From Rhodospirillaceae bacterium (lineage in GTDB: Bacteria; Pseudomonadota; Alphaproteobacteria; UBA7985): a stretch of DNA of 55,170 bases. How positions within the stretch are numbered: the first letter of the stretch is position 1; the number at the start of each line of letters is the position of its first letter. The stretch is taken from positions 1-55,170 of the forward strand of contig PAFB01000149.1 of assembly GCA_002700865.1 (NCBI GenBank), given 5' to 3'. Positions 4,673 to 48,652 of this stretch are shown here, piece by piece. A model generated the notes under the pieces. The model made no database searches. It saw nothing but the letters and a program-made list of their open reading frames with translations, and was not told where the DNA came from. Both the position numbers and the translations under genes were made by a program.

Positions 4673-6202
4673 ATGAGCGCCAGGGACAAAATTGAGCGAC
4701 TCCAGCAGCTTTTTCCCGGCAGCGTAACAGAAACTCAAGACCCCGAAACCGGGCAGGTTACGCTGCGGGTCGCACCCGAACAGCTGCACACGGCACTGCA
4801 GGCAGCGTTAGGCGACGCGTACTGCTCCGCTGAAAAGACCATGCTGACACAGGTCGAAAGCTACGCCTTCACATGGCCGGGGAAGACAGCAGCCCGGCAG
4901 CAGGCTACGGCCCCGGTTTCCGTGCAGTTTCAACCCCGCCCGGACCTGAGTAAGGACCCTGAGACCACCAGCAACCAGCTTATCATCGGCGATAACCTCG
5001 CTGCGCTGAAGCTGCTGCGGGAAGGGTCAGGCACCGACTCACTCGCCGGAAAGGTGCGTTTGATCTACATCGATCCACCCTACAACACCGGCAACGCCTT
5101 CATTTATCCCGATAACTTCCGCGAAAGCCTCCGCTCTTACACCGCGCGCAAACCCAAGACGACCGATCCAGAAGGCCAGAAGGCGTTCGACGACGACGCC
5201 GATCACCACGGCCGCATTCACGCGGACTGGCTGAGCTTCATGCTGCCGCGATTGATTGTGGCGCGTGACTTGCTGCGCGAAGACGGCTGCATCGTTATTT
5301 CCATTGATGAGCACGAGCTCCCCAACCTCTGGAAGCTCTGTGAAGAAGTGTTTGGCGCGGAAAACTTTGTCGAGTGCATGGTCTACGACAAGAAATCTTC
5401 GGCCAAAGGCGTTCCGCCAACGAAGATGATCGCCGGGGTTCACGAATACATGCTGGTTTTCCAGCGCTCTTCCGCCTTTTCATTCATCGGGCGACCACGC
5501 AGTGAGGAAGGCTTTTACAACCCCGACAATGACCCGCGTGGTCCCTGGCGCAACACCAACTGCAAATCGACCGTGAAAGACCCACGCGAGGCCTTCGACG
5601 TCGAAGATCCCGCAACCGGGCGACGGTTCCGCGATGTCTGGGCCTTTAGCCCAGCGGAAATGGCGCGCAAGGCAGCGGCGGGTGAATTGCTGTTCCCCAA
5701 GGCTGACGGCGGACAAGTGCGGATGAAGGAGTATTTCAACGCCTTCCGCAACGCCAACATTCCGATCAAATCGTCTTGGGGGCTCTATGATGCTCAATAC
5801 AACACCCAGTATCTGACCCGGCTTATGGGGACTAAGGTGTTCCTCAACCCCAAGCACATACGGTTGATGCGTGACCTGCTCGCCTATACTACGCAAGGAA
5901 ATGATATCGTACTGGACTTCTTCGGCGGCTCAGGCACGACAGCCGATGCGCTGCTGTCACTCAACGCCGAAGACGGGCATCAGCGACGCTTTGTGCTGGT
6001 ACAACTCGATGTGCCAGTGGAGCCGTCCTCGGCAGCAGGCAAAGCGGGCTACACGACCATCGCCGACCTGTGCCGCGACCGGATCAACCGCGCAGGTGCG
6101 GCGTTGAACCCGGCCGAGGCTCACCCCAACTGGGATGGGAATGTTGGCTATCGCGTGCTTGATCTTGGTCCGCCGACTCCTGTCGATCTGAAAGTGGATT
6201 GA
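4673..6202 (+). CDS. Site-specific DNA methyltransferase, beta-class, type III Mod-like (N6-adenine/N4-cytosine), no adjacent Res
   Basis: 509-aa ORF. Catalytic motif IV IYIDPPYNTGNAFIYPDNF lies near residue 135 and AdoMet motif I VLDFFGGSGTTADA near residue 418. This IV-before-I order is typical of Mod-like enzymes. Confidence 0.85.
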   Translation: MSARDKIERLQQLFPGSVTETQDPETGQVTLRVAPEQLHTALQAALGDAYCSAEKTMLTQVESYAFTWPGKTAARQQATAPVSVQFQPRPDLSKDPETTSNQLIIGDNLAALKLLREGSGTDSLAGKVRLIYIDPPYNTGNAFIYPDNFRESLRSYTARKPKTTDPEGQKAFDDDADHHGRIHADWLSFMLPRLIVARDLLREDGCIVISIDEHELPNLWKLCEEVFGAENFVECMVYDKKSSAKGVPPTKMIAGVHEYMLVFQRSSAFSFIGRPRSEEGFYNPDNDPRGPWRNTNCKSTVKDPREAFDVEDPATGRRFRDVWAFSPAEMARKAAAGELLFPKADGGQVRMKEYFNAFRNANIPIKSSWGLYDAQYNTQYLTRLMGTKVFLNPKHIRLMRDLLAYTTQGNDIVLDFFGGSGTTADALLSLNAEDGHQRRFVLVQLDVPVEPSSAAGKAGYTTIADLCRDRINRAGAALNPAEAHPNWDGNVGYRVLDLGPPTPVDLKVD

Positions 6203-6320
6203 TCCTATCTGACCGCCGCAGGTTTGCCTTGGGCCTCCTAAACCCCATCTCTGGCCCAACGTGTTTCTCCGCACAGGTTTACTGCTCCGCCCTCATCATC
6301 TCTTCTGGAAAGGTTCTCCT

Positions 6321-6518
6321 ATGGCACCCCTGATCGCCATTCTCCTGCTCGTCGGTCTCACCGTGGTCGTGATTGGCGCGCTCGCCATTCCGATGAATTT
6401 CTTCCGCTGGGTCGCGGGCGTCCGCGAGGAGCGGGACCGACTGGAGGCAGAATTGCTGGAGGCACGCCGCGAAATTCGCAGTCTAAAAGAAGAGCTGATG
6501 CGCCAGAACGACAGCTGA
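6321..6518 (+). CDS. Small membrane protein with charged coiled-coil-like tail (65 aa)
   Basis: ATG 6321. Hydrophobic helix MAPLIAILLLVGLTVVVIGALAIP is followed by EERDRLEAELLEARREIRSLKEELMRQ. No family recognised. Confidence 0.4.
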   Translation: MAPLIAILLLVGLTVVVIGALAIPMNFFRWVAGVREERDRLEAELLEARREIRSLKEELMRQNDS

Positions 6519-6592
6519 GTCGACACGCTCAGGCACGTGACACGGCGCTCGAAGCGCGTACCCACGGCGGCACTGTTCAGTATCAGCAGCGC

Positions 6593-7312
6593 TTAACCTG
6601 TGATGCCATGCCCCTTCATGGCCTCCAGATCAGCTTCGATCTCGGTCCAGTCATCGCGTGGCAGCACCACGCAGGGTTGGGCGATGTCTTCGAGCCACGA
6701 AAACACCGAAAAAAACGGCTGTTCGTAGGAGCGCGTTGCATGGGGGGCCATCGACGGATTGTAGACGAGGCTGCCTGGACCAAGATCACGCCAGCCACTC
6801 TGGCCAAAGCGCCAGCCAGACCGTGATGAGAGGTTTAAGTAAGTCTCCGGCGCCGGATGAGCATGGTCGCGGTAAAGCGTATGCGGGTGGAGCAGGAAGA
6901 ACCCAAGCGTAAAATCTGCGTGCTCGAAGCCACAGGCGCCGGGACCGATCAGCAACGTATGCAGATTACCATTTCGATAACCCAAGCCGACATCAGCGTC
7001 CGCAGCGTAATATTTCATCTGGTCCTCGGCCCAGACCAAATCATCGATCGCTGCCCTCAGAGCCCGTTGTAAGGGCAGGAGCAGCGGTGACTGCATCTGG
7101 TCAACAGCCTGGGTCAATAAGGGTTGATGACGGTCGGCGGAGCGGGGCGGACGATCGGTGAAAGCATCGCGGCTGAGCGCTGTCGTCTGCAAACGGTCTA
7201 GCGTGCGCTGCGCCGCCAAGGCAGTGTCCCCGGGCTCAGCAGCAGCGGTACGAAGCATGCCAGCGATAGCCTCGACCACCGCCCGCACACGCTCAAATCG
7301 ACCGGTCACCAT
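6593..7312 (-). CDS. Cupin-fold protein, DddL-like DMSP-lyase family (tentative)
   Basis: 239-aa ORF with a two-motif cupin signature: LGFFLLHPHTLYRDHAHPAPETYLNLS (HxHxxxxE) and GSLVYNPSMAPHAT. Length and block layout resemble what I recall of DddL (LGLVLFAP..YP.H.H....E.Y..LSG ... N.P...H). Confidence 0.55.
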   Translation of the reverse strand: MVTGRFERVRAVVEAIAGMLRTAAAEPGDTALAAQRTLDRLQTTALSRDAFTDRPPRSADRHQPLLTQAVDQMQSPLLLPLQRALRAAIDDLVWAEDQMKYYAADADVGLGYRNGNLHTLLIGPGACGFEHADFTLGFFLLHPHTLYRDHAHPAPETYLNLSSRSGWRFGQSGWRDLGPGSLVYNPSMAPHATRSYEQPFFSVFSWLEDIAQPCVVLPRDDWTEIEADLEAMKGHGITG

Positions 7313-7355
7313 CGGTGACCGCTAGATGTGCGATAACTCCGTCTCATACCGCCGC

Positions 7356-8735
7356 TTAGGCTTCGCCCATCAAACGAGCGTCGTAGGGAAACCGGGTGAT
7401 ATTCTCAAAGCCGGTTTCCGTTACAATAAGCTGGTCTTCAAGCTTGATGCAGAAATCGCCGTCTTCCTCACCAACCAGCGCCTCCACGCATAAGCACATA
7501 CCCGGCTCCAATTCATAATCGTTGGCGCCTTCCTGGAATTCTTCCTTGTAGGGGATGCAGGGCCACTCATCGCACAGACCAACGCCATGGAAGCGGCAGC
7601 TATACTGCCGTGCCACGTATTTGGGATCTAGCTGGTGACCGCCAAAGGTGAGCTCCTTCATCGTCGTGCCTGGTTTCACCAGCTGCTCGTTGGTGCGCAT
7701 GTGCTCGACCGCGTGCTTGTAAGCCTCGATCATGTCTGCGCGCGGTGCCTCGTCACCAATCCACCAGGTGCGGGAAATGTCGATGCAGAAGCCGTATATG
7801 CCGACGAGATCGGTATCGAAGGCAAGGATTTCGTTGTTCTGCAGCTTTCGCGGGCCACACTCCTGAAACCACGGGTTGGTTCGCGGGCCGGACGCCAGCA
7901 AGCGGGTTTCAATCCACTCGCCGCCACGCTTGATGTTGCCGGCGTGCAGAACGGACCAGATTTCGTCCTCGGTCATGCCCGGTTGAACTGCTGCCTGCAT
8001 CTCGTAAACTGATTGCTCACAGGACCAGCTCGCGCACTTCATGGCCAGCTGTTCATCGATGCTCTTGACGCTGCGGGCCTTCTCCATCGCCTCCTCACCG
8101 CGCATGACGGCGAAGCCTGCGTCGCGCAGCGCATAAAAACCATCGAGCATGATCTTGTCCACGCCCAGCCGCATATTCCCCCCGGCGTGCTCGGCCATCA
8201 GGTCGATGACTTGCTGTGCGAAGGCGTCTGCAGCCTGCTGGGTTCGGTCGCCGCTGGTAAAGTAGAACATGCTTGCTCCGCTCCGGACCTCCTGGACCAG
8301 CGGGTTGAAGTCACACAGGAAGGGGCTGTTTTTGTAGTCCCAGACCACGAGGTGCCCGTCCGCTGTCACCAAACAGGCGCGGAAGGGATTGTGGGTGTTC
8401 CACAACTGCATGCTGGTGCTGTCGCTGGCGTAGCGGATGTTCAGCGGGTCGAATAGCAGCACGCCGCCCCAATCACGTTCGTGCAGGGCTTTGACGATTC
8501 GGTCGAGCCGGTAGGCCCGCATAGCCTGCAGGTCCGGCGCTTGCAGCCCCGCCGCGTGCCATTCCTGCCAAGCCAGGTCAGTCGGTCCGATTTCAATGCG
8601 GTTGCCGTTGTTCGGGCTGCCATCGTCTAAGGTATCGCCACGCGCACGGTCGATCCGCACCGAAGGGGCAGCTTCGGCCTTTGAGCTTCCAAAAGGCATG
8701 ACCTTGCGGGTGTTGCTGTAAAACTCGCCATCCAT
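7356..8735 (-). CDS. dddP: DMSP lyase DddP (M24 metallopeptidase-like family)
   Basis: 459-aa ORF with GGAGGA SD. Blocks match characterised DddP as I recall it: RIEIGPT, LNIRYASDSTSMQLWNTHNPFRA, WDYKNSPF, GGEWIETRLLASGPRTNPWFQECGPR, FDTDLVG, HGVGLCDEWP and DFCIKLEDQLIVTE. Confidence 0.8.
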   Translation of the reverse strand: MDGEFYSNTRKVMPFGSSKAEAAPSVRIDRARGDTLDDGSPNNGNRIEIGPTDLAWQEWHAAGLQAPDLQAMRAYRLDRIVKALHERDWGGVLLFDPLNIRYASDSTSMQLWNTHNPFRACLVTADGHLVVWDYKNSPFLCDFNPLVQEVRSGASMFYFTSGDRTQQAADAFAQQVIDLMAEHAGGNMRLGVDKIMLDGFYALRDAGFAVMRGEEAMEKARSVKSIDEQLAMKCASWSCEQSVYEMQAAVQPGMTEDEIWSVLHAGNIKRGGEWIETRLLASGPRTNPWFQECGPRKLQNNEILAFDTDLVGIYGFCIDISRTWWIGDEAPRADMIEAYKHAVEHMRTNEQLVKPGTTMKELTFGGHQLDPKYVARQYSCRFHGVGLCDEWPCIPYKEEFQEGANDYELEPGMCLCVEALVGEEDGDFCIKLEDQLIVTETGFENITRFPYDARLMGEA

Positions 8736-8860
8736 CCTGCGTATCCTCCACTACAATAACCTATCAAACACCCAGATAGCATTCCCGGTCGAGAGATCTT
8801 CCAATTTGCGTCACCGATGCGACACCTTTGCACCCTTAAACCGCGACACGTTGACAACCG

Positions 8861-9457
8861 TCAGGCGAAAAGCAGCGTCACCGCGGAGAGCACAGCGACC
8901 CCTGCCAACGCCGCCGCCATCCCGAGGTTAATCAACCGCTGAAGACGCTGGGACAGGTCAAGAGCGTGAAGCCGAACGCCGGCCCAGAGCCAAAGGAAGT
9001 GTAACGGAAACCAAACCAAGTTGGCGATCACCAGCTTGGCCCCGATCTCAAACCAAAGGGCTTCAGGCGCAAAGCTGAAGCCAGTGAAGAGTGCGGTATT
9101 GACCGCGTAGGCCTTAGGGTTGAGCACCTGGAGCACGACTGCGCTTAGAACGCCGGGCGGGTGCCGCGCTTCTATAAAAGCGATGCGCGAGCCAGCGAAG
9201 GCGATCCGTACAGCGAGATAGAACAAGAAGGCCGTCGACCCTGCCAGCAGTGCAAGCCGCAGCCCCGGCGCCGACAGCAGCACGGCGGCCAGGCCACTCA
9301 TCACTGCCAGCATGACGATGTTGGCCCCCAGCATGATCCCAAGCACAAACACCACCGAGCGCCGGAAACCGTAGGACGCGCCAAAGCCCGCCACCGTCAG
9401 GACGGCCGGTCCAGGGGTGAGGACGAGGAAAAATGCGGCGAGGCCGAAGCTAATCAT
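8861..9457 (-). CDS. LysE/RhtB-family amino-acid (small-molecule) exporter
   Basis: About 200-aa polytopic membrane protein. The N-terminal MISFGLAAFFLVLTPGPAVL block is typical of LysE translocators. ATG 9457 preferred, with an alternative GTG at 9487. Confidence 0.8.
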   Translation of the reverse strand: MISFGLAAFFLVLTPGPAVLTVAGFGASYGFRRSVVFVLGIMLGANIVMLAVMSGLAAVLLSAPGLRLALLAGSTAFLFYLAVRIAFAGSRIAFIEARHPPGVLSAVVLQVLNPKAYAVNTALFTGFSFAPEALWFEIGAKLVIANLVWFPLHFLWLWAGVRLHALDLSQRLQRLINLGMAAALAGVAVLSAVTLLFA

Positions 9458-9599
9458 AATGCCATTTGCTGCGCCTTTGCCGCGCACAGCAAGCGCAAAG
9501 TCACCGCAGCCGCGCCAGGGTGACAGGCACCCTTGCGGGACTTTTGGGACAAACGGCCTAAATCACCGATCTATTAAGCTTTTTTCCGGAGACTGCGCC

Positions 9600-10907
9600 A
9601 TGCAGGAGCATCCGCGCCGCCGCGACTTGATCGACGAACTCCACGCGCGCCCCTTTGCCGAGGTCAGCGCCCCCTGTGACGTGGTTTTTCTCGCCTGCAA
9701 GCACCCGGAGAATGCGGTCGGGCGCGACCGGGCTGCGGAACGCGACCGGCTCATCGATCGGCTGAGCACCGCCGGGCTCGACGCCGAGAAGGTCGGCACC
9801 AACCACTTCCTCGACCGCGTAGCGGCCTGCGACCGGCTGAAATGGGAGCAGCATTCGGAGTTCACCAGCCTCGCGCTGTTCCGCGAGGACACAGCGGCTG
9901 AGGCCTTCGACTTTGATGACTCCCGCGCCACCCTCGAAGGCTGGGCACAGAGCCTGACTTCCCCGGCGCTGGTGCAGGTTTCCATCCGCGTCGAACCCGT
10001 CCCCGAAGACCCGGCAACCATGGCGACGCGCCTGTCCCAGTGGTTCAACCCAAAAAGCCTCGCCGCCGCCCGCATACTCGACGGCAGTGGCGTGCTTGCC
10101 GGGGATTTCCAACTCGACGAGCATGGCCACATGCGCTTCGCCCTGTTCGTTGCGACCGACACCAGCCCGGCCCGCGTCGGGCAGGTGGTGCAGTCGGTGC
10201 TGGAGATCGAGACCTACCGCGCCATGGCCATGCTCGGCCTGCACCGAGCGCGCAAGTTGGCCAAGGCATTGACCGACTTCGACCAGCGGCTCGAAGACAT
10301 CGTGCTGACCATGGCCAAGGCCGACGCGAACGCCGAAGGTCTGCTGTTCAACCTTCTCGACATCTCGTCGACGCTGGAGGAGCAGGCGGCGCTGATGACT
10401 TTCCGCTTCGGCGCGACTGAGGCCTACAACGCCATCGTCCACGACCGGATCGAGCTGCTGCGAGAGCAGCGGTTCGAGGGGCTACAGACCTTCCACGAGT
10501 TCATGATGCGCCGCTTTGACCCGGCGATCCGGACCGTCAGCTCGACTCAGGACCGGCTCAACAGCCAGCTCGACCGAACGACCCGGACGGCCGAGCTGCT
10601 GCGCACCCGTGTCGACGTCTCGCGCTCAGCGCAGAACCAGTCGCTGCTGACCAGCATGGACCGGCGCACGGGGCTGCAGCTGCGGCTGCAGCGCACGGTC
10701 GAGGGCCTATCGGTGATCGCGATCAGCTACTACGCCGTTAACCTGCTCTCCGGGCTGCTGTATCCGCTGGCCGACGCCGCCGGCTTCTCCAAAGCGGAAC
10801 TGACCGCCGGGCTGGTGCTGCCGGTTGTCGGCGTGGTGGCGCTGCTGATCCGACAGGTACGGCTCGGCGCGCGACGCCGAGACGACAATAGCCCGGGACA
10901 GGACTAA
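9600..10907 (+). CDS. DUF3422-family membrane-anchored protein
   Basis: ATG 9600 has GGAGA 7 nt upstream. The N-terminus MQEHPRRRDLIDELHARPF is typical of DUF3422. There are two C-terminal hydrophobic helices (LSVIAISYYAVNLLSGLLYPL and LVLPVVGVVALLI). Track ORF codons 1-61 look like a spurious extension. Confidence 0.7.
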   Translation: MQEHPRRRDLIDELHARPFAEVSAPCDVVFLACKHPENAVGRDRAAERDRLIDRLSTAGLDAEKVGTNHFLDRVAACDRLKWEQHSEFTSLALFREDTAAEAFDFDDSRATLEGWAQSLTSPALVQVSIRVEPVPEDPATMATRLSQWFNPKSLAAARILDGSGVLAGDFQLDEHGHMRFALFVATDTSPARVGQVVQSVLEIETYRAMAMLGLHRARKLAKALTDFDQRLEDIVLTMAKADANAEGLLFNLLDISSTLEEQAALMTFRFGATEAYNAIVHDRIELLREQRFEGLQTFHEFMMRRFDPAIRTVSSTQDRLNSQLDRTTRTAELLRTRVDVSRSAQNQSLLTSMDRRTGLQLRLQRTVEGLSVIAISYYAVNLLSGLLYPLADAAGFSKAELTAGLVLPVVGVVALLIRQVRLGARRRDDNSPGQD

Positions 10908-10940: not shown

Positions 10941-12521
10941 TTGAGCAACCACAGCGCCGGATCCGCCATGCTCGACCAGAATCTCTACACCTGCTTCCGA
11001 GACAGGCGCCCCACTGACCCGTCTGCCCTGTTCCTGCGCGCGGATCGGGGTAGCCTTGCCTACGGCGACCTAGATGGGGAAACCGGGCAATACGCCGCCG
11101 CGCTGGCCGCCTGCGGGGTCTCACCCGGTGATCGGGTGGTTGTCCAGGTCGGTAAATCGATGGAATTCGTGCTGCTCTACCTCGCCTGTCTGCGCGTTGG
11201 TGCGGTGTTCGTTCCACTCAACCCGGCCTACACTCCGACTGAATTGGCTTACTTCCTCGATGATGCCAAACCGCAAGTGCTGGTCTGCGACCCTGACGCG
11301 GACGCCACCCATGACCTCGCCGCATTGGCAGGGGAGGCTGGCATTGGCCATTGCCTGACGCTGGGCATGGATGGAAGCGGTAGCCTGCCCGAAGCCGCAG
11401 CGGCCTTGCCACCTTCCGACGACATCATTCACCGCGAACGCGATGACCTCGCAGCGATCCTTTACACCTCGGGCACCACAGGGCGATCAAAGGGTGCGAT
11501 GATCACCCACGGCAACCTGATCTCGAACGGGCTTGTGCTGCACGAATACTGGGGTTGGGTGCCGGGAGACGTATTGCTCCACGCCCTGCCCGTATTTCAT
11601 GTCCACGGCCTCTTCGTTGCGCTGCACTGCGCCCTGCTCAACGGCTCGGAAGTCATCTTTCTCGACGCCTTCGACCCCGCGCGACTGGTGGCCGAGTTGC
11701 CCGGAGCCAGCGTGCTCATGGGTGTTCCAACCTTCTATGTCCGACTGTTGAACACGCCCGGATTCGACCGCAGCGTTAGCGACGGCGTGCGGGTGTTCAT
11801 CTCCGGCTCCGCGCCACTGCTGCCCGAGACCTTCGACCAGTTCGAAGCCCTGACCGGACAGCCGATCCTCGAACGCTACGGCATGACCGAGGCGGGGATG
11901 ATCACCTCCAACCCCTATGACGACGGGGAACGCATTGCCGGCACAGTGGGCTACGCCCTGCCCGGTATCCATGCCCGGGTCACTGACCGCGACGGCGCGA
12001 CGCTGCCAGCAGGAGAAATCGGTATTTTAGAAATCGCTGGCCCAAACGTCTTCGCTGGCTACTGGAATATGCCCGAGAAGACGGCAGAAGAATTCCGCAC
12101 CGATGGCCACTTCATCACCGGCGATATGGCAACCATGGCCGAAGACGGACGCATCACCATCGTCGGCCGCGCCAAGGACTTGATCATCAGCGGCGGCTTC
12201 AACGTCTACCCCAAAGAGGTGGAGGAGCAATTAGACCAAATACCGGGAGTGCGGGAGAGCTGCGTCATTGGCCTGCCCCACCCGGACCTCGGCGAGGCCG
12301 TCATAGCGGTGATCGTGCCGGAAGCAGGTGGTGAAGCGGTCGGTGCCTCGGGCGCGGGCGCGGGGGCGATATCCTCGGAAAGCGTCGCCACCTTCCTTGC
12401 CGACCGGTTGGCACGGTTCAAGCAACCCCGGCAAGTGGTTCTGGTCGACGCCCTGCCCCGCAACGCGATGGGCAAGGTGAAGAAAAAAGCGCTGCGGGAA
12501 GACTATGCAGGCTTGTTCTAA
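10941..12521 (+). CDS. AMP-dependent acyl-CoA synthetase, malonyl-CoA synthetase (MatB)-like
   Basis: 526-aa ORF, TTG start with GGAGGG SD. Carries the AMP-binding motif ILYTSGTTGRSKGAMITH. The N-terminal MSNH and the block VVVQVGKSMEFVLLYLACLRVGAVFVPLNPAYTPTELAYFLDDAKP closely resemble rhizobial MatB as I recall it. Confidence 0.75.
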   Translation: MSNHSAGSAMLDQNLYTCFRDRRPTDPSALFLRADRGSLAYGDLDGETGQYAAALAACGVSPGDRVVVQVGKSMEFVLLYLACLRVGAVFVPLNPAYTPTELAYFLDDAKPQVLVCDPDADATHDLAALAGEAGIGHCLTLGMDGSGSLPEAAAALPPSDDIIHRERDDLAAILYTSGTTGRSKGAMITHGNLISNGLVLHEYWGWVPGDVLLHALPVFHVHGLFVALHCALLNGSEVIFLDAFDPARLVAELPGASVLMGVPTFYVRLLNTPGFDRSVSDGVRVFISGSAPLLPETFDQFEALTGQPILERYGMTEAGMITSNPYDDGERIAGTVGYALPGIHARVTDRDGATLPAGEIGILEIAGPNVFAGYWNMPEKTAEEFRTDGHFITGDMATMAEDGRITIVGRAKDLIISGGFNVYPKEVEEQLDQIPGVRESCVIGLPHPDLGEAVIAVIVPEAGGEAVGASGAGAGAISSESVATFLADRLARFKQPRQVVLVDALPRNAMGKVKKKALREDYAGLF

Positions 12522-12656: not shown

Positions 12657-13844
12657 ATGACCGACACCGCTGCCCGCGCGGGCATGCCTTCTGGCACCGT
12701 TACCAAGGACTTTGGCTTTGGCACCCAGATCCGCAAATCACCCTACTTCGACGCGACCGTGCGCTGGGGCGCAACAGGGTTCTCCGTCTATAATCACATG
12801 TACATTCCGCGTGATTTTGGTGATCCGGAGCAGAATTTCTGGAACCTGATAAACGACGCCATCCTCTGCGACGTAGCGGTCGAGCGGCAGGTAGAGATCA
12901 GCGGCCCAGACGCCGCCGCCTTTGTCCAGCGGCTGACCCCGCGTGATCTATCCAAACTTGCTGTGGGCCAGTGCAAGTACGTGCTGATTACCAACGCCGC
13001 GGGCTGCCTGATCAACGACCCCGTGCTGCTACGTCTGGCGGAGGACCGATTCTGGCTGTCACTGGCCGACAGCGACGTGCTGCTGTGGGCGCAGGGGGTG
13101 GCAGTGAACAGCGGCCTCGACGTCCATATCCACGAGCCCGACGTCTCCCCCCTGCAACTTCAGGGACCGAAGTCGGGAGAGATTATGGCTGCGTTGTTTG
13201 GTGATGACATCCGCGACCTGCGCTACTACTGGCTGCGCGAATTGGAGCTTCACGGCATTCCGGTCGTCGTTTCCCGCACCGGTTGGTCGAGCGAGCTGGG
13301 TTACGAAATCTATCTTCAGGACAGCGCGCAGGGGGACGCCCTGTGGGAAGCGATCATGGCCGCGGGCCAGCCCTTCGGCCTGCAGCCCGGGCACACGTCG
13401 TCCATCCGGCGGATCGAAGGCGGAATGCTGTCCTACCAGGCCGACGCCGATATCACGGTCAACCCCTTCGAGCTGGGACTGGACCGGCTGGTTGAACTCG
13501 ACGGTGGCCATGACTTCATCGGTCGTGAGGCGTTGTTGAAAATCCGTGACGCCGGGGTTGATCGCGTGCAGGTGGGGCTCCGTCTCGACGCCGAACCCCT
13601 GACCGGACCGAACACAACATTCTGGACTGTCACCGCGACCACGGGCGGGACCGTGGGGCGGGTTACGTCGGCTGTGTATTCCCCGCGGTTGGAGCAAAAC
13701 ATCGCACTGGCCTTCGTTAGCACCGATCACGCCGGTTTGGGCACTAAACTGCGGGTCCAGCGCGCGCAGGGCGACTGCCCCGCCGAGGTGGTCGAACGAC
13801 CCTTCTTTGATCCGCGTAAGGCCAAGGCCAAGGGCGATAACTAG
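12657..13844 (+). CDS. dmdA: GcvT-family aminomethyltransferase, DmdA-like (candidate DMSP demethylase)
   Basis: 395-aa ORF. Blocks parallel characterised DmdA as I recall it: IRKSPYFDATV..G...FSVYNHMYIP, ERQVEISGPDAAAFVQRLTPRDLSKLAVGQCKY, INDPVLLRLAEDRFWLSLADSDVLLWAQGVA, EPDVSPLQLQGP, VSRTGWSSELGYEIY and IRRIEGGMLSY. The GcvT-family call is confident. The DmdA-specific call is moderate. Confidence 0.6.
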   Translation: MTDTAARAGMPSGTVTKDFGFGTQIRKSPYFDATVRWGATGFSVYNHMYIPRDFGDPEQNFWNLINDAILCDVAVERQVEISGPDAAAFVQRLTPRDLSKLAVGQCKYVLITNAAGCLINDPVLLRLAEDRFWLSLADSDVLLWAQGVAVNSGLDVHIHEPDVSPLQLQGPKSGEIMAALFGDDIRDLRYYWLRELELHGIPVVVSRTGWSSELGYEIYLQDSAQGDALWEAIMAAGQPFGLQPGHTSSIRRIEGGMLSYQADADITVNPFELGLDRLVELDGGHDFIGREALLKIRDAGVDRVQVGLRLDAEPLTGPNTTFWTVTATTGGTVGRVTSAVYSPRLEQNIALAFVSTDHAGLGTKLRVQRAQGDCPAEVVERPFFDPRKAKAKGDN

Positions 13845-27302: not shown

Positions 27303-27585
27303 GAGACATCCATTCGGTTGCGCAGACGTAGCATTCGAGTCTGCTGTTGCAGGATGTCGTAGGGGTGCGCACTGGACACCCCTTCGAACATCTGACGCTT
27401 GGCCTCTGCCACCCGCGAGAGCGCATCCGCAGCCAGGTCAAGGGCGTGGATGAACTCGAATTCAGCCTCCGGCTCGTCGGCGCTCATTTTTACTTCTGCC
27501 GACATCAGCACATCGAGCATCAAAGCAAGCAACTCAGCCTTATCAATGTCGGACGAAACCGATTTAAGGTTGCGGAGCGTCATGC
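27290..27585 (-). CDS. ORF fragment abutting the symmetry axis (C-terminal >=97 codons of an unknown helical protein)
   Basis: The minus-strand frame stays open from the axis to the stop at 27290 (...MTLRNLKSVSSDIDKAELLALMLDVLMSAEVKMSADEPEAEFEFIHALDLAADALSRVAEAKRQMFEGV...DVSQVE). Codon 27584-27586 is split by the axis. The native 5' end is either lost or at ATG 27583. Confidence 0.4.
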
Positions 27586-27586
27586 G
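27585..27586. other. Symmetry axis of the palindrome (centre of CATGC|GCATG), no unique loop or spacer
   Basis: Sequence 27575-27596 reads gagcgtcatgc|gcatgacgctc. The axis equals the exact midpoint of the window. Confidence 0.95.
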
Positions 27587-46435: not shown

Positions 46436-47815
46436 ATGGATGGCGAGTTTTACAGCAACACCCGCAAGGTCATGCCTTTTGGAAGCTCAAAGGCCGAAGC
46501 TGCCCCTTCGGTGCGGATCGACCGTGCGCGTGGCGATACCTTAGACGATGGCAGCCCGAACAACGGCAACCGCATTGAAATCGGACCGACTGACCTGGCT
46601 TGGCAGGAATGGCACGCGGCGGGGCTGCAAGCGCCGGACCTGCAGGCTATGCGGGCCTACCGGCTCGACCGAATCGTCAAAGCCCTGCACGAACGTGATT
46701 GGGGCGGCGTGCTGCTATTCGACCCGCTGAACATCCGCTACGCCAGCGACAGCACCAGCATGCAGTTGTGGAACACCCACAATCCCTTCCGCGCCTGTTT
46801 GGTGACAGCGGACGGGCACCTCGTGGTCTGGGACTACAAAAACAGCCCCTTCCTGTGTGACTTCAACCCGCTGGTCCAGGAGGTCCGGAGCGGAGCAAGC
46901 ATGTTCTACTTTACCAGCGGCGACCGAACCCAGCAGGCTGCAGACGCCTTCGCACAGCAAGTCATCGACCTGATGGCCGAGCACGCCGGGGGGAATATGC
47001 GGCTGGGCGTGGACAAGATCATGCTCGATGGTTTTTATGCGCTGCGCGACGCAGGCTTCGCCGTCATGCGCGGTGAGGAGGCGATGGAGAAGGCCCGCAG
47101 CGTCAAGAGCATCGATGAACAGCTGGCCATGAAGTGCGCGAGCTGGTCCTGTGAGCAATCAGTTTACGAGATGCAGGCAGCAGTTCAACCGGGCATGACC
47201 GAGGACGAAATCTGGTCCGTTCTGCACGCCGGCAACATCAAGCGTGGCGGCGAGTGGATTGAAACCCGCTTGCTGGCGTCCGGCCCGCGAACCAACCCGT
47301 GGTTTCAGGAGTGTGGCCCGCGAAAGCTGCAGAACAACGAAATCCTTGCCTTCGATACCGATCTCGTCGGCATATACGGCTTCTGCATCGACATTTCCCG
47401 CACCTGGTGGATTGGTGACGAGGCACCGCGCGCAGACATGATCGAGGCTTACAAGCACGCGGTCGAGCACATGCGCACCAACGAGCAGCTGGTGAAACCA
47501 GGCACGACGATGAAGGAGCTCACCTTTGGCGGTCACCAGCTAGATCCCAAATACGTGGCACGGCAGTATAGCTGCCGCTTCCATGGCGTTGGTCTGTGCG
47601 ATGAGTGGCCCTGCATCCCCTACAAGGAAGAATTCCAGGAAGGCGCCAACGATTATGAATTGGAGCCGGGTATGTGCTTATGCGTGGAGGCGCTGGTTGG
47701 TGAGGAAGACGGCGATTTCTGCATCAAGCTTGAAGACCAGCTTATTGTAACGGAAACCGGCTTTGAGAATATCACCCGGTTTCCCTACGACGCTCGTTTG
47801 ATGGGCGAAGCCTAA
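46436..47815 (+). CDS. dddP: DMSP lyase DddP (mirror copy)
   Basis: Exact mirror twin of 7356..8735(-), with an identical 459-aa translation. Confidence 0.8.
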   Translation: MDGEFYSNTRKVMPFGSSKAEAAPSVRIDRARGDTLDDGSPNNGNRIEIGPTDLAWQEWHAAGLQAPDLQAMRAYRLDRIVKALHERDWGGVLLFDPLNIRYASDSTSMQLWNTHNPFRACLVTADGHLVVWDYKNSPFLCDFNPLVQEVRSGASMFYFTSGDRTQQAADAFAQQVIDLMAEHAGGNMRLGVDKIMLDGFYALRDAGFAVMRGEEAMEKARSVKSIDEQLAMKCASWSCEQSVYEMQAAVQPGMTEDEIWSVLHAGNIKRGGEWIETRLLASGPRTNPWFQECGPRKLQNNEILAFDTDLVGIYGFCIDISRTWWIGDEAPRADMIEAYKHAVEHMRTNEQLVKPGTTMKELTFGGHQLDPKYVARQYSCRFHGVGLCDEWPCIPYKEEFQEGANDYELEPGMCLCVEALVGEEDGDFCIKLEDQLIVTETGFENITRFPYDARLMGEA

Positions 47816-47858
47816 GCGGCGGTATGAGACGGAGTTATCGCACATCTAGCGGTCACCG

Positions 47859-48578
47859 ATGGTGACCGGTCGATTTGAGCGTGTGCGGGCGGTGGTCGAG
47901 GCTATCGCTGGCATGCTTCGTACCGCTGCTGCTGAGCCCGGGGACACTGCCTTGGCGGCGCAGCGCACGCTAGACCGTTTGCAGACGACAGCGCTCAGCC
48001 GCGATGCTTTCACCGATCGTCCGCCCCGCTCCGCCGACCGTCATCAACCCTTATTGACCCAGGCTGTTGACCAGATGCAGTCACCGCTGCTCCTGCCCTT
48101 ACAACGGGCTCTGAGGGCAGCGATCGATGATTTGGTCTGGGCCGAGGACCAGATGAAATATTACGCTGCGGACGCTGATGTCGGCTTGGGTTATCGAAAT
48201 GGTAATCTGCATACGTTGCTGATCGGTCCCGGCGCCTGTGGCTTCGAGCACGCAGATTTTACGCTTGGGTTCTTCCTGCTCCACCCGCATACGCTTTACC
48301 GCGACCATGCTCATCCGGCGCCGGAGACTTACTTAAACCTCTCATCACGGTCTGGCTGGCGCTTTGGCCAGAGTGGCTGGCGTGATCTTGGTCCAGGCAG
48401 CCTCGTCTACAATCCGTCGATGGCCCCCCATGCAACGCGCTCCTACGAACAGCCGTTTTTTTCGGTGTTTTCGTGGCTCGAAGACATCGCCCAACCCTGC
48501 GTGGTGCTGCCACGCGATGACTGGACCGAGATCGAAGCTGATCTGGAGGCCATGAAGGGGCATGGCATCACAGGTTAA
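47859..48578 (+). CDS. Cupin-fold DddL-like protein (mirror copy)
   Basis: Exact mirror twin of 6593..7312(-). Confidence 0.55.
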   Translation: MVTGRFERVRAVVEAIAGMLRTAAAEPGDTALAAQRTLDRLQTTALSRDAFTDRPPRSADRHQPLLTQAVDQMQSPLLLPLQRALRAAIDDLVWAEDQMKYYAADADVGLGYRNGNLHTLLIGPGACGFEHADFTLGFFLLHPHTLYRDHAHPAPETYLNLSSRSGWRFGQSGWRDLGPGSLVYNPSMAPHATRSYEQPFFSVFSWLEDIAQPCVVLPRDDWTEIEADLEAMKGHGITG

Positions 48579-48652
48579 GCGCTGCTGATACTGAACAGTG
48601 CCGCCGTGGGTACGCGCTTCGAGCGCCGTGTCACGTGCCTGAGCGTGTCGAC

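Follow-up and report, generated by a model that had tools for sequence, protein, structure and literature searches.

Organization of the locus

The window, meaning the whole 55,170-nt stretch analyzed here, is contig C13 of a 160-contig metagenome-assembled genome (MAG) whose nearest genomes carry the NCBI labels 'Geminicoccus sp. SP156', 'Rhodospirillaceae bacterium', and 'Alphaproteobacteria bacterium'. On its minus strand, a lysE gene, a dddP gene, and a cupin gene follow one another in this order, all co-directional. The features discussed are the following:

6593..7312, minus strand: DddU-family cupin gene (cupin-DLL superfamily), 239 aa, probable DMSP/DMSOP lyase (PF16867, clade)
7313..7355, minus strand: dddP-cupin spacer, 43 nt (46 nt with a cupin start at the GTG at 7309)
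7356..8735, minus strand: dddP, M24-fold di-metal DMSP lyase, 459 aa (NF043017, PDB matches, ligands)
8736..8860, minus strand: lysE-dddP intergenic region, 125 nt, probable dddP regulatory region (conserved across four species)
8861..9487, minus strand: LysE-family exporter gene, co-directional with and upstream of dddP (PF01810, 47.6 bits)
9417..10907, plus strand: DUF3422 protein gene, divergent from lysE, context (PF11902, 431 bits)
10941..12521, plus strand: MatB-like acyl-CoA ligase gene, context (NF005702, 722 bits for a cut-off of 558)
12657..13844, plus strand: DmdA-like GcvT-family aminomethyltransferase gene, context (best NCBIfam match NF009133)
27585..27586, no strand: fold-back axis of a 2 x 27,585-nt palindrome (reverse-complement comparison)
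46436..48578, plus strand: mirror image of dddP and the cupin gene on the opposite arm of the palindrome (translations identical)

An initial annotation, made from the sequence of the window, had described a tandem of dddP and a 'DddL-like' cupin gene with a mirror copy elsewhere in the contig. The tandem of two unrelated families held up, while the DddL label did not, and the mirror copy is not an independent locus. The 459-aa and 239-aa open reading frames (ORFs) do lie on one strand, the minus strand in the 6593-8735 copy, with 43 nt between them, and the sequence blocks quoted for them (RIEIGPT, WIETRLLASGPRTNPWFQECGPR, HAHPAPETY, and NPSMAPHAT) were all found in the proteins. As the start codon of the relatives aligns with the second codon of the window's cupin gene, a GTG, the cupin product is probably 238 aa long and the gap 46 nt. 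Similarly, the DUF3422 gene is syntenic in relatives and annotated there as 443 aa, so translation probably begins downstream of position 9417.

Two further neighbors were compared with enzymes of DMSP metabolism. The DmdA-like protein, encoded 4 kb away, reached 361 bits on the DMSP demethylase model NF009133, under its cut-off of 410. The CoA ligase at 10941..12521 was considered as a DmdB or PrpE and rejected, as it scores as a member of the NCBIfam malonyl-CoA synthase subfamily.

The mirror copy belongs to a palindromic contig

The window and its reverse complement are identical (0 mismatches, zero spacer), and this contig is both the sole palindromic one among the 160 and the largest of the assembly. 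A 97-aa ORF has its ATG 2 nt downstream of the axis (27585|27586), and its orthologues in genomes G001 and G004 begin at the same Met. In four congeners that carry the axis region, it is single copy with no fold-back. The palindrome is thus most likely an assembly fold-back artefact. Because the entire contig equals its own reverse complement, the copy at 46436..48578 does not count as a second locus.

The 459-aa protein as DddP

The 459-aa protein scored 749.4 bits on the NCBIfam DddP equivalog NF043017 (residues 26-456, cut-off 600), and its matches in the PDB included 4rzy (RlDddP, 635 bits) and 4b28 (617 bits). All six ligands of the two-metal center are kept (D307, D309, D319, H383, E418, and E433, for reference ligands Asp295, Asp297, Asp307, His371, Glu406, and Glu421), as are both proposed catalytic residues (Y378 and D389, for Tyr366 and Asp377; PMC4108388). 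From its sequence, the assignment of this protein to DddP, already made in the initial annotation, is certain.

The cupin groups with DddU

The 239-aa cupin matched the Pfam model PF16867 DMSP_lyase with 79.9 bits (cut-off 27) and nothing whatever in NCBIfam. Since PF16867 is the model that was used to gather the whole cupin-DLL superfamily (10.1101/161257), it cannot tell DddL from the other cupin-DLL types, and the match does not point to DddL. NF043016 and NF043018, the accessions beside NF043017, were tried as DddL/DddQ models and turned out to be unrelated families, and 14 named control genomes yielded no useful cupin lyase. The verified DddU of Amylibacter cionae H-12 (P0029) was used as the reference. 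Its genome holds one PF16867 gene, the neighbors of this gene (thiolase, ECH-3HCDH, lyase, CoA ligase, LysR, and ABC genes) are the cluster described in PMC11497337, and H146, E150, Y152, and H185 in its numbering agree exactly with the published residues.

The window's cupin is 47.2% identical to this DddU over residues 2-234, which places it within the DddU definition of PMC13310141 (identity of 40% or more to a ratified DddU, with coverage of 70% or more) and below the >70% identity to H-12 DddU that the original paper used for homologues (PMC11497337). The DddU site aligns to H152, E156, Y158, and H191 of the window's protein, a His/Glu/Tyr/His site that is invariant across 17 family members. 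When the metal ligands and the rest of the active site were checked, all six residues (H150, H152, E156, Y158, H191, and W206) were present, and 60 of the 63 family-invariant columns are retained. In a tree with references for DddU, DddL, DddQ, and DddW, from which L103 and L099 (its extracted ORF was out of frame) were excluded, the window's cupin and H-12 DddU fell in one 24-row clade (support 96/95), standing apart from DddL, DddQ, and DddW. Named DddL proteins, in contrast, are only 26-29% identical to the cupin over 144-191 residues (33-43 bits) and form their own clade (support 100/99). These sequence comparisons place the cupin in the DddU family and not in DddL, and it is probably a DMSP/DMSOP lyase.

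The neighborhood also differs from those of dddL and canonical dddU. The cupin gene is flanked by dddP, lysE, an 85-aa ORF, and a DNA methyltransferase gene, with no acuR-acuI-dddL arrangement, and no thiolase, ECH, CoA-ligase, LysR, or ABC genes of a ddd-acu block adjoin it.

A DddL-type cupin in a locus truly present twice, as a biological inverted duplication, would account for the Pfam DMSP_lyase match, the DddL-like length of ~230 aa, and the identical proteins encoded on both arms. The superfamily-wide reach of PF16867 and the distance to named DddL refute its first part, and a zero-mismatch, zero-spacer palindrome that is unique in the assembly and single copy in relatives opposes the second, which makes this explanation extremely improbable.

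An AF2 model of the cupin (pLDDT 91.5) had DddQ structures as all of its top six PDB matches (E 2e-12 to 1e-10, TM 0.62-0.75, target-length normalised). The predicted fold would be a DddQ-like jelly roll with an N-terminal helical part, and PiDddU was likewise reported to have a predicted fold closest to DddQ.

Both dddP (dN/dS = 0.024 vs L004) and the cupin gene (dN/dS = 0.10) are under purifying selection, and lysE gave a dN/dS of 0.05. The last 42 nt of the cupin gene diverge from relatives because an indel breakpoint falls there. Decay as the cause of the cupin's long branch was ruled out by its dN/dS and by the 60/63 invariant positions kept.

Linkage of dddP and the cupin gene among relatives

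Within one uncultured genus, the tandem recurs in four genomes at species level, and many metagenome contigs have it too. The LysE-DddP-cupin block occurs in L004-L008, L010-L012, G001, G010, and G004. Among loci from named genomes, a dddP lies within 4 kb of a cupin homologue in 4 of 69, all in the window's own clade. The tandem was absent at 65 further DddU-like genes, and in none of the 9 other class-level genomes with both gene types were the two adjacent. The earlier view that a tandem of two non-homologous families with DMSP-lyase members is unusual was thus borne out, and we conclude that the linkage of these two known lyase families is real and lineage specific. The lysE gene next to dddP is 92-95% identical in the tandem-type relatives, and no lysE was found around type-B dddP in the regions examined.

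Within the genus, dddP and the cupin gene are adjacent in four genomes, 1.6 kb apart in one, and on separate contigs in five. In G006, G007, G009, and the contig of P0010, the orthologous cupin gene lies directly downstream of genes for a GMC oxidoreductase (550 bits on the choline-dehydrogenase model, cut-off 605) and an aldehyde dehydrogenase (~405 bits on betaine-aldehyde-dehydrogenase (BADH) models). The latter was considered as a DddC and rejected, since the BADH models score far above the MMSDH model. As congeners hold the cupin apart from dddP, the linkage is not required, and the native substrate of the cupin may not be DMSP.

The cupin could be a cupin-DLL enzyme acting natively on another compound, such as an onium carboxylate, for example the product of the choline-dehydrogenase-like and BADH-like pair. 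In that case it would adjoin dddP because both enzymes serve some common native pathway, and both would cleave DMSP only as a side activity. The position of the congeneric cupins behind such a pair fits this idea, as do the low catalytic efficiency and DMSOP preference of DddU and the disputed view of the Tawfik laboratory that DddP and DddQ-like cupins are only promiscuous DMSP lyases and that true lyases are a minority among cupin-DLL proteins (10.1101/168930, 10.1101/161257). On the other hand, a ΔdddU mutant of A. cionae H-12 partly lost DMSP lyase activity, the dddU of this strain is DMSP-induced and lies inside a ddd-acu cluster, the catalytic residues of the window's cupin are all conserved, and a DmdA-like gene is close by. 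On balance, we consider a non-DMSP native substrate rather unlikely.

Spacer and upstream region

A scan of the 43-nt dddP-cupin spacer found no terminator-like or sigma-70-like site, and no obvious Shine-Dalgarno sequence precedes the cupin gene. Among relatives, the spacer shows 63% mean column identity and varies in length, with a 45-nt insertion in L012. The 125-nt lysE-dddP intergenic region, in comparison, has 87% mean column identity across four species, with a conserved block GTCGCAT.GGTGACGCAAAT and an invariant GGAGGA 7-8 nt upstream of the dddP ATG. An Rfam scan of positions 6000-10000, including this region, gave no match. By the usual signs of an operon (one strand, a 43-nt gap without a terminator, and adjacency conserved across species), we infer that dddP and the cupin gene are co-transcribed from the conserved region upstream of dddP.

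Could the adjacency be without function, the cupin gene being expressed independently and having come to lie downstream of dddP through a chance rearrangement in one sublineage? The relative placement of the two genes differs among genomes of the genus, the spacer shows little conservation and no fixed length, dddP has a conserved upstream region of its own, and the indel breakpoint in the cupin 3' end suggests that the region is prone to rearrangement. Yet the block is kept between species at a synonymous divergence of 0.7-1.3 from the window, many independent metagenome contigs carry it, and the two genes are co-directional and closely spaced, with neither a terminator nor a promoter-like site in between. 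Chance adjacency is therefore improbable.

A proposed transcription unit for two unrelated lyases

The best explanation, to which we assign a probability of about 0.72, is a lysE-dddP-dddU-like block of an uncultured marine alphaproteobacterium that would encode two unrelated, co-transcribed lyases, the mirror copy being a fold-back. DddP, with its M24 fold and two-metal, mainly iron center, would cleave DMSP to DMS and acrylate. The cupin would be a single-metal DddU-family enzyme in which, by analogy with DddU and DddQ, the metal-bound substrate is deprotonated by the motif tyrosine Y158 and then undergoes beta-elimination. If both genes are read as a common transcript that starts in the conserved dddP upstream region, the cell would possess two lyases of unrelated mechanism that act on dimethylated sulfur propionates.

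A division of labor, with DddP preferring DMSP and the DddU-type cupin preferring DMSOP, is plausible by analogy: the efficiency of DddP was reported to be 3-13-fold higher on DMSP, and that of DddU, DddQ, and DddK 2-83-fold higher on DMSOP (PMC10686828). The published DddU is weak (kcat/KM 88 M-1 s-1).

Several points count against the block of two co-transcribed lyases: the cupin gene without a visible Shine-Dalgarno sequence behind a poorly conserved spacer; a 47% identity lower than the >70% cut-off of the original DddU paper, together with the missing ddd-acu neighbors of canonical dddU; the congeners in which the cupin is unlinked from dddP, behind choline-dehydrogenase-like and BADH-like genes; the argument that DMSP lysis by DddP and the DddQ-like cupins is mere promiscuity (10.1101/168930); and the weak activity of the published DddU.

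More tentatively, the block might form a two-substrate module in which DddP acts on DMSP, the cupin on DMSOP or another onium propionate, and LysE exports a toxic product, e.g., acrylate. The 'other onium propionate' is suggested by the choline-dehydrogenase-like and BADH-like partners of the orthologues. If true, this would be the first case of gene linkage explaining the retention of several unrelated 'DMSP lyases' by marine bacteria.

Biologically, the climate-active gas DMS comes chiefly from DMSP cleavage. It is an acknowledged open question why lyases of several unrelated families occur together in many marine bacteria (PMC11497337), and dddP and dddU are the dominant lyase genes at a coastal time-series site (PMC13310141). 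In a host group that is abundant and uncultured, the conserved link between dddP and a DddU-type cupin gene offers a testable handle on lyase multiplicity and on the dispute over which of these enzymes are true lyases. There is also an annotation lesson. DddL and DddQ share one KEGG KO (PMC13310141), so neither this KO nor a PF16867 match suffices for a DddL call, and a 'dddL' in a MAG survey may be another cupin-DLL type.

Comparison with known systems

The closest characterized relatives of the cupin are the DddU proteins of Amylibacter (Neptunicoccus) cionae H-12 and Phaeobacter inhibens P66 (Environ Microbiol 2023, PMC11497337), with 47% full-length identity (lengths of 228 and 239 aa), a shared His/Glu/Tyr/His site, a common clade in the tree, and a predicted fold nearest DddQ. 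Unlike their hosts, that of the window's cupin is an uncultured non-roseobacter alphaproteobacterium, and its gene adjoins lysE and dddP, whereas H-12 dddU adjoins thiolase, enoyl-CoA hydratase, CoA ligase, LysR, and ABC transporter genes.

DddL of Sulfitobacter and Rhodobacter sphaeroides (PMC3017554) shares with the cupin the cupin-DLL superfamily, a length of ~230 aa, and the HxHxxxExY motif with a third His. It differs in its low identity (26-29% over ~150 residues), its clade, and its gene context, as dddL lies in an acuR-acuI-dddL operon and the window's cupin gene has no acuR/acuI neighbors.

The DddP proteins of Ruegeria lacuscaerulensis and Roseobacter denitrificans (4rzy, 4s00, and 4b28) match the window's DddP over the full length with 617-635 bits, and the latter scores above the equivalog cut-off and conserves the six ligands and the Tyr/Asp pair. 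The window's protein has ~17 additional N-terminal residues, and its gene is immediately followed by a cupin lyase gene, an arrangement not found in the nine other genomes of the class sample with both genes.

It is common for a cell to have several lyases, for example in Ruegeria pomeroyi (DddP, DddQ, and DddW) and Roseovarius nubinhibens (tandem dddQ). Of the 14 class-level genomes found to hold a DddP-type gene, 9 had more than one lyase. In multi-lyase genomes such as that of R. pomeroyi, however, the different families lie at separate loci, whereas in the window two unrelated families are immediate neighbors.

A dddP-cupin tandem on a palindromic contig

As the initial annotation stated, two open reading frames (ORFs) of 459 and 239 aa lie 43 nt apart on the same strand:

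7356-8735, minus strand, 459-aa ORF (dddP)
6593-7312, minus strand, 239-aa ORF (cupin)

A mirror copy of the pair had also been described at 46436-48578. The proteins encoded there are identical to those of 6593-8735, but the reverse complement of the window equals the window itself, with 0 mismatches and no spacer around an axis at 27585|27586. The window is an entire contig (C13) of a 2.32-Mb, 160-contig metagenome-assembled genome (MAG; 73% complete), in which it is both the longest contig and the only palindromic one. In the four congeners carrying the region that flanks the axis, this region is single, without an inverted duplicate. A 97-aa ORF has its ATG 2 nt downstream of the axis, and its orthologues in two congeners (G001 and G004) begin at the same Met, so the fold-back point is intergenic. 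Because the palindrome is perfect, confined to one contig, and single-copy in the congeners, the second copy is most likely an assembly fold-back, which would reduce the unique sequence to 27,585 nt and make all features in 27586-55170 duplicates.

The 459-aa protein is a DddP

The 459-aa protein scored 749 bits against the NCBIfam DddP equivalog NF043017 (cut-off 600) and 617-635 bits against the DddP structures 4rzy, 4s00, and 4b28, whereas matches to prolidases and creatinases stayed below 46 bits. The RdDddP metal ligands Asp295, Asp297, Asp307, His371, Glu406, and Glu421 (PMC4108388) are all kept (D307, D309, D319, H383, E418, E433), as are both candidate bases, Tyr366 and Asp377 in RdDddP (PMC4108388) and Y378 and D389 here. 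On these sequence criteria, the protein is a DddP, as first proposed.

The cupin is a divergent DddU rather than a DddL

The 239-aa protein had been called DddL-like. It does match Pfam PF16867 (79.9 bits), but this model was used to gather the whole cupin-DLL superfamily, comprising DddL, DddQ, DddW, DddK, DddY, and four unnamed clades (10.1101/161257), so the match is uninformative about DddL specifically. The six superfamily-defining residues, metal ligands included, are kept (H150, H152, E156, Y158, H191, W206). Roseobacter 228-aa "DMSP lyase family proteins" are homologues at 45-50% identity.

As a DddU reference, we used the cupin P0029 of Neptunicoccus (Amylibacter) cionae CGMCC 1.15880. 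We identify it as the experimentally verified DddU because it is the one PF16867 gene of its genome, its neighbours (thiolase, enoyl-CoA hydratase/3HCDH, AMP-dependent ligase, LysR regulator, and ABC transporter) follow the order published for IEX10_RS05385-05420, and its residues H146, E150, Y152, and H185 carry the numbers published for PiDddU. For DddL, the reference was the Sulfitobacter sediminis gene with the highest PF16867 score (L092, 128.6 bits); its close homologues carry the names "DMSP lyase DddL [Sulfitobacter noctilucae]", "DddL [Roseobacter cerasinus]", and "dimethylpropiothetin dethiomethylase".

Table. Comparison of the window's cupin with DMSP-lyase families
Verified DddU (P0029): 47% identity, residues 2-234
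Six named DddL proteins: 26-29% identity, 144-191 residues, 33-43 bits
DddQ and DddQ-like: 23-28% identity, partial
DddW-like: no match

In a maximum-likelihood tree (LG+C20+F+G4), the window's cupin and DddU fell in one 24-row clade (support 96/95), apart from DddL (100/99), DddQ, and DddW on their long branches. Identity and phylogeny together replace the DddL-like assignment with a DddU one. With at least 40% identity and at least 70% coverage to a ratified sequence, the criterion of a 2026 survey (PMC13310141), the protein is classed as DddU, while its 47% identity falls short of the >70% cut-off of the original DddU paper; it is accordingly treated here as a divergent DddU-family protein.

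Three SAR116 single-cell cupins (L065, L066, L069) also fall inside the DddU clade, at 39-43% identity to the window's cupin. Given this position, the "dddL" reported for SAR116 (10.1101/2021.05.06.443042) may be DddU-type. No dddP was found in the flanks (up to 4 kb) of any of the three.

The terminal branch of the cupin is long, and the protein is only 79% identical to its nearest relative, against about 95% for DddP and the LysE-family exporter encoded upstream. Its dN/dS is nevertheless 0.10 (0.05 for lysE and 0.024 for dddP), and it keeps 60 of the 63 columns invariant in the 16 other family members, no worse than other members do. One of its three departures is V2, where the others have M, which, with the DNA alignment, points to the GTG at 7309 as the true start. 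Homology with relatives ends 42 nt before the stop codon, at an indel breakpoint (6551-6634; mirror 48537-48620) where the relatives carry 3.3 kb more, containing an alpha/beta-hydrolase (Abhydrolase_3) gene and a 710-aa HpcH_HpaI-family gene. This breakpoint accounts for the different, longer C-terminal tail.

Putative operon structure and neighbours

Neither a terminator-like nor a sigma-70-like site was found in the dddP-cupin spacer, and no Rfam element at the locus. This spacer is 63% conserved, variable in length, and without a clear Shine-Dalgarno sequence. The 125-nt lysE-dddP gap (8736-8860) is 87% conserved across four species. An invariant GGAGGA precedes the dddP ATG, and the block GTCGCAT.GGTGACGCAAAT is also conserved. 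The gap is likely a regulatory region, and the block could be an operator; co-transcription from upstream of dddP would be the simplest reading. Just past the divergent DUF3422 gene lie a MatB-like ligase gene and the following:

12657-13844, DmdA-like GcvT-family protein, best match DMSP demethylase DmdA (361 bits, missing the cut-off of 410), 223 bits against a TMAO demethylase model

Distribution of the tandem

The block AMP-ligase/DUF3422/LysE/DddP/cupin was found on contigs of several independent metagenomes and in three named MAGs (L010-L012).

Table. Arrangement of dddP and the cupin gene in the genus
Directly adjacent: G000 (the window's MAG), G001, G010, G004
1.6 kb apart, cyclase and DsbA-like gene between: G003
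On different contigs: G002, G005, G006, G007, G009
Both not found: G008

The G003 layout (L116, G003:C21:5000-12000) is an intermediate arrangement, with dddP, a PF04199 cyclase, a DsbA-like protein, the cupin, and an ATG22/MFS transporter on one strand. The dddP of the unlinked genomes belongs to a second type, which is 87-89% identical and has no accompanying LysE. In the long-read "pilon" MAG G004 (L012, G004:C3:33381-34668), dddP matches as two overlapping pieces in different frames, probably a sequencing-error frameshift and not a pseudogene.

The window's MAG contains a second dddP (C138:9888-11264; L003 1498-2922, minus strand; 88% identical) with no cupin or LysE nearby. It is of the type of congeners without the tandem, and near-complete congeners carry one type only. 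Two other contigs, C12 and C160, share 10.6 kb at 99.86% identity; together with the two dddP types, this suggests that the MAG may mix two congeneric populations. A second PF16867 cupin (C155:13685-14332; L091 4686-5333, minus strand; 215 aa) shares 32% identity with the window's cupin across the barrel core. Its branch is very long, and it resembles DddQ weakly (E 2e-9 to 5cu1).

Beyond the genus, the 65 other DddU-like loci from named genomes all lacked dddP within 4 kb. In a class-wide sample of 400 evenly drawn genomes, a DddP-type gene was present in 14 others, 9 of which also had cupin-DLL genes; in none of the 9 were the two near each other. Since 0/65 loci and 0/9 genomes were linked, co-occurrence is common and linkage rare and lineage-specific, which bears out the initial description of the pairing as unusual. 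A limited text search found no report of a dddP-dddU tandem. The linkage of these two known lyase families is real, conserved, and unusual.

Possible roles of the two enzymes

DddP works with a centre of two metals and has Asp or Tyr as its base (PMC4108388); in DddQ and DddU, a single metal is held by His, Glu, and His, and the motif Tyr acts as the base (PMC11497337). In purified form, DddP enzymes were 3-13-fold more efficient on DMSP, and DddU, DddQ, and DddK 2-83-fold more efficient on DMSOP (PMC10686828). With these mechanisms and preferences established, the best-supported reading is that dddP and the cupin would form a two-lyase module, whose substrates may be complementary.

The chief alternative is that the cupin acts natively on a different onium compound. 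In G006 (L108), G007 (L110), and the P0010 contig (L009; near-identical to, and used as context for, the G009 cupin), cupins 50-56% identical to the window's are encoded immediately downstream of a GMC oxidoreductase resembling choline dehydrogenase and an aldehyde dehydrogenase resembling betaine aldehyde dehydrogenase, both below equivalog cut-offs. This pair is a hint that a pathway oxidising onium alcohols may supply the cupin, suggesting such a substrate, and DddP and DddQ-type enzymes have been argued to be merely promiscuous lyases (10.1101/168930).

The AlphaFold2 model of the cupin, of high confidence (pLDDT 91.5, pTM 0.89), had DddQ structures as its top six PDB matches; neither DddL nor DddU appeared among the descriptions of the hits listed. 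The predicted fold would thus resemble DddQ, just as the DddU authors reported a structural relationship to DddQ for PiDddU.
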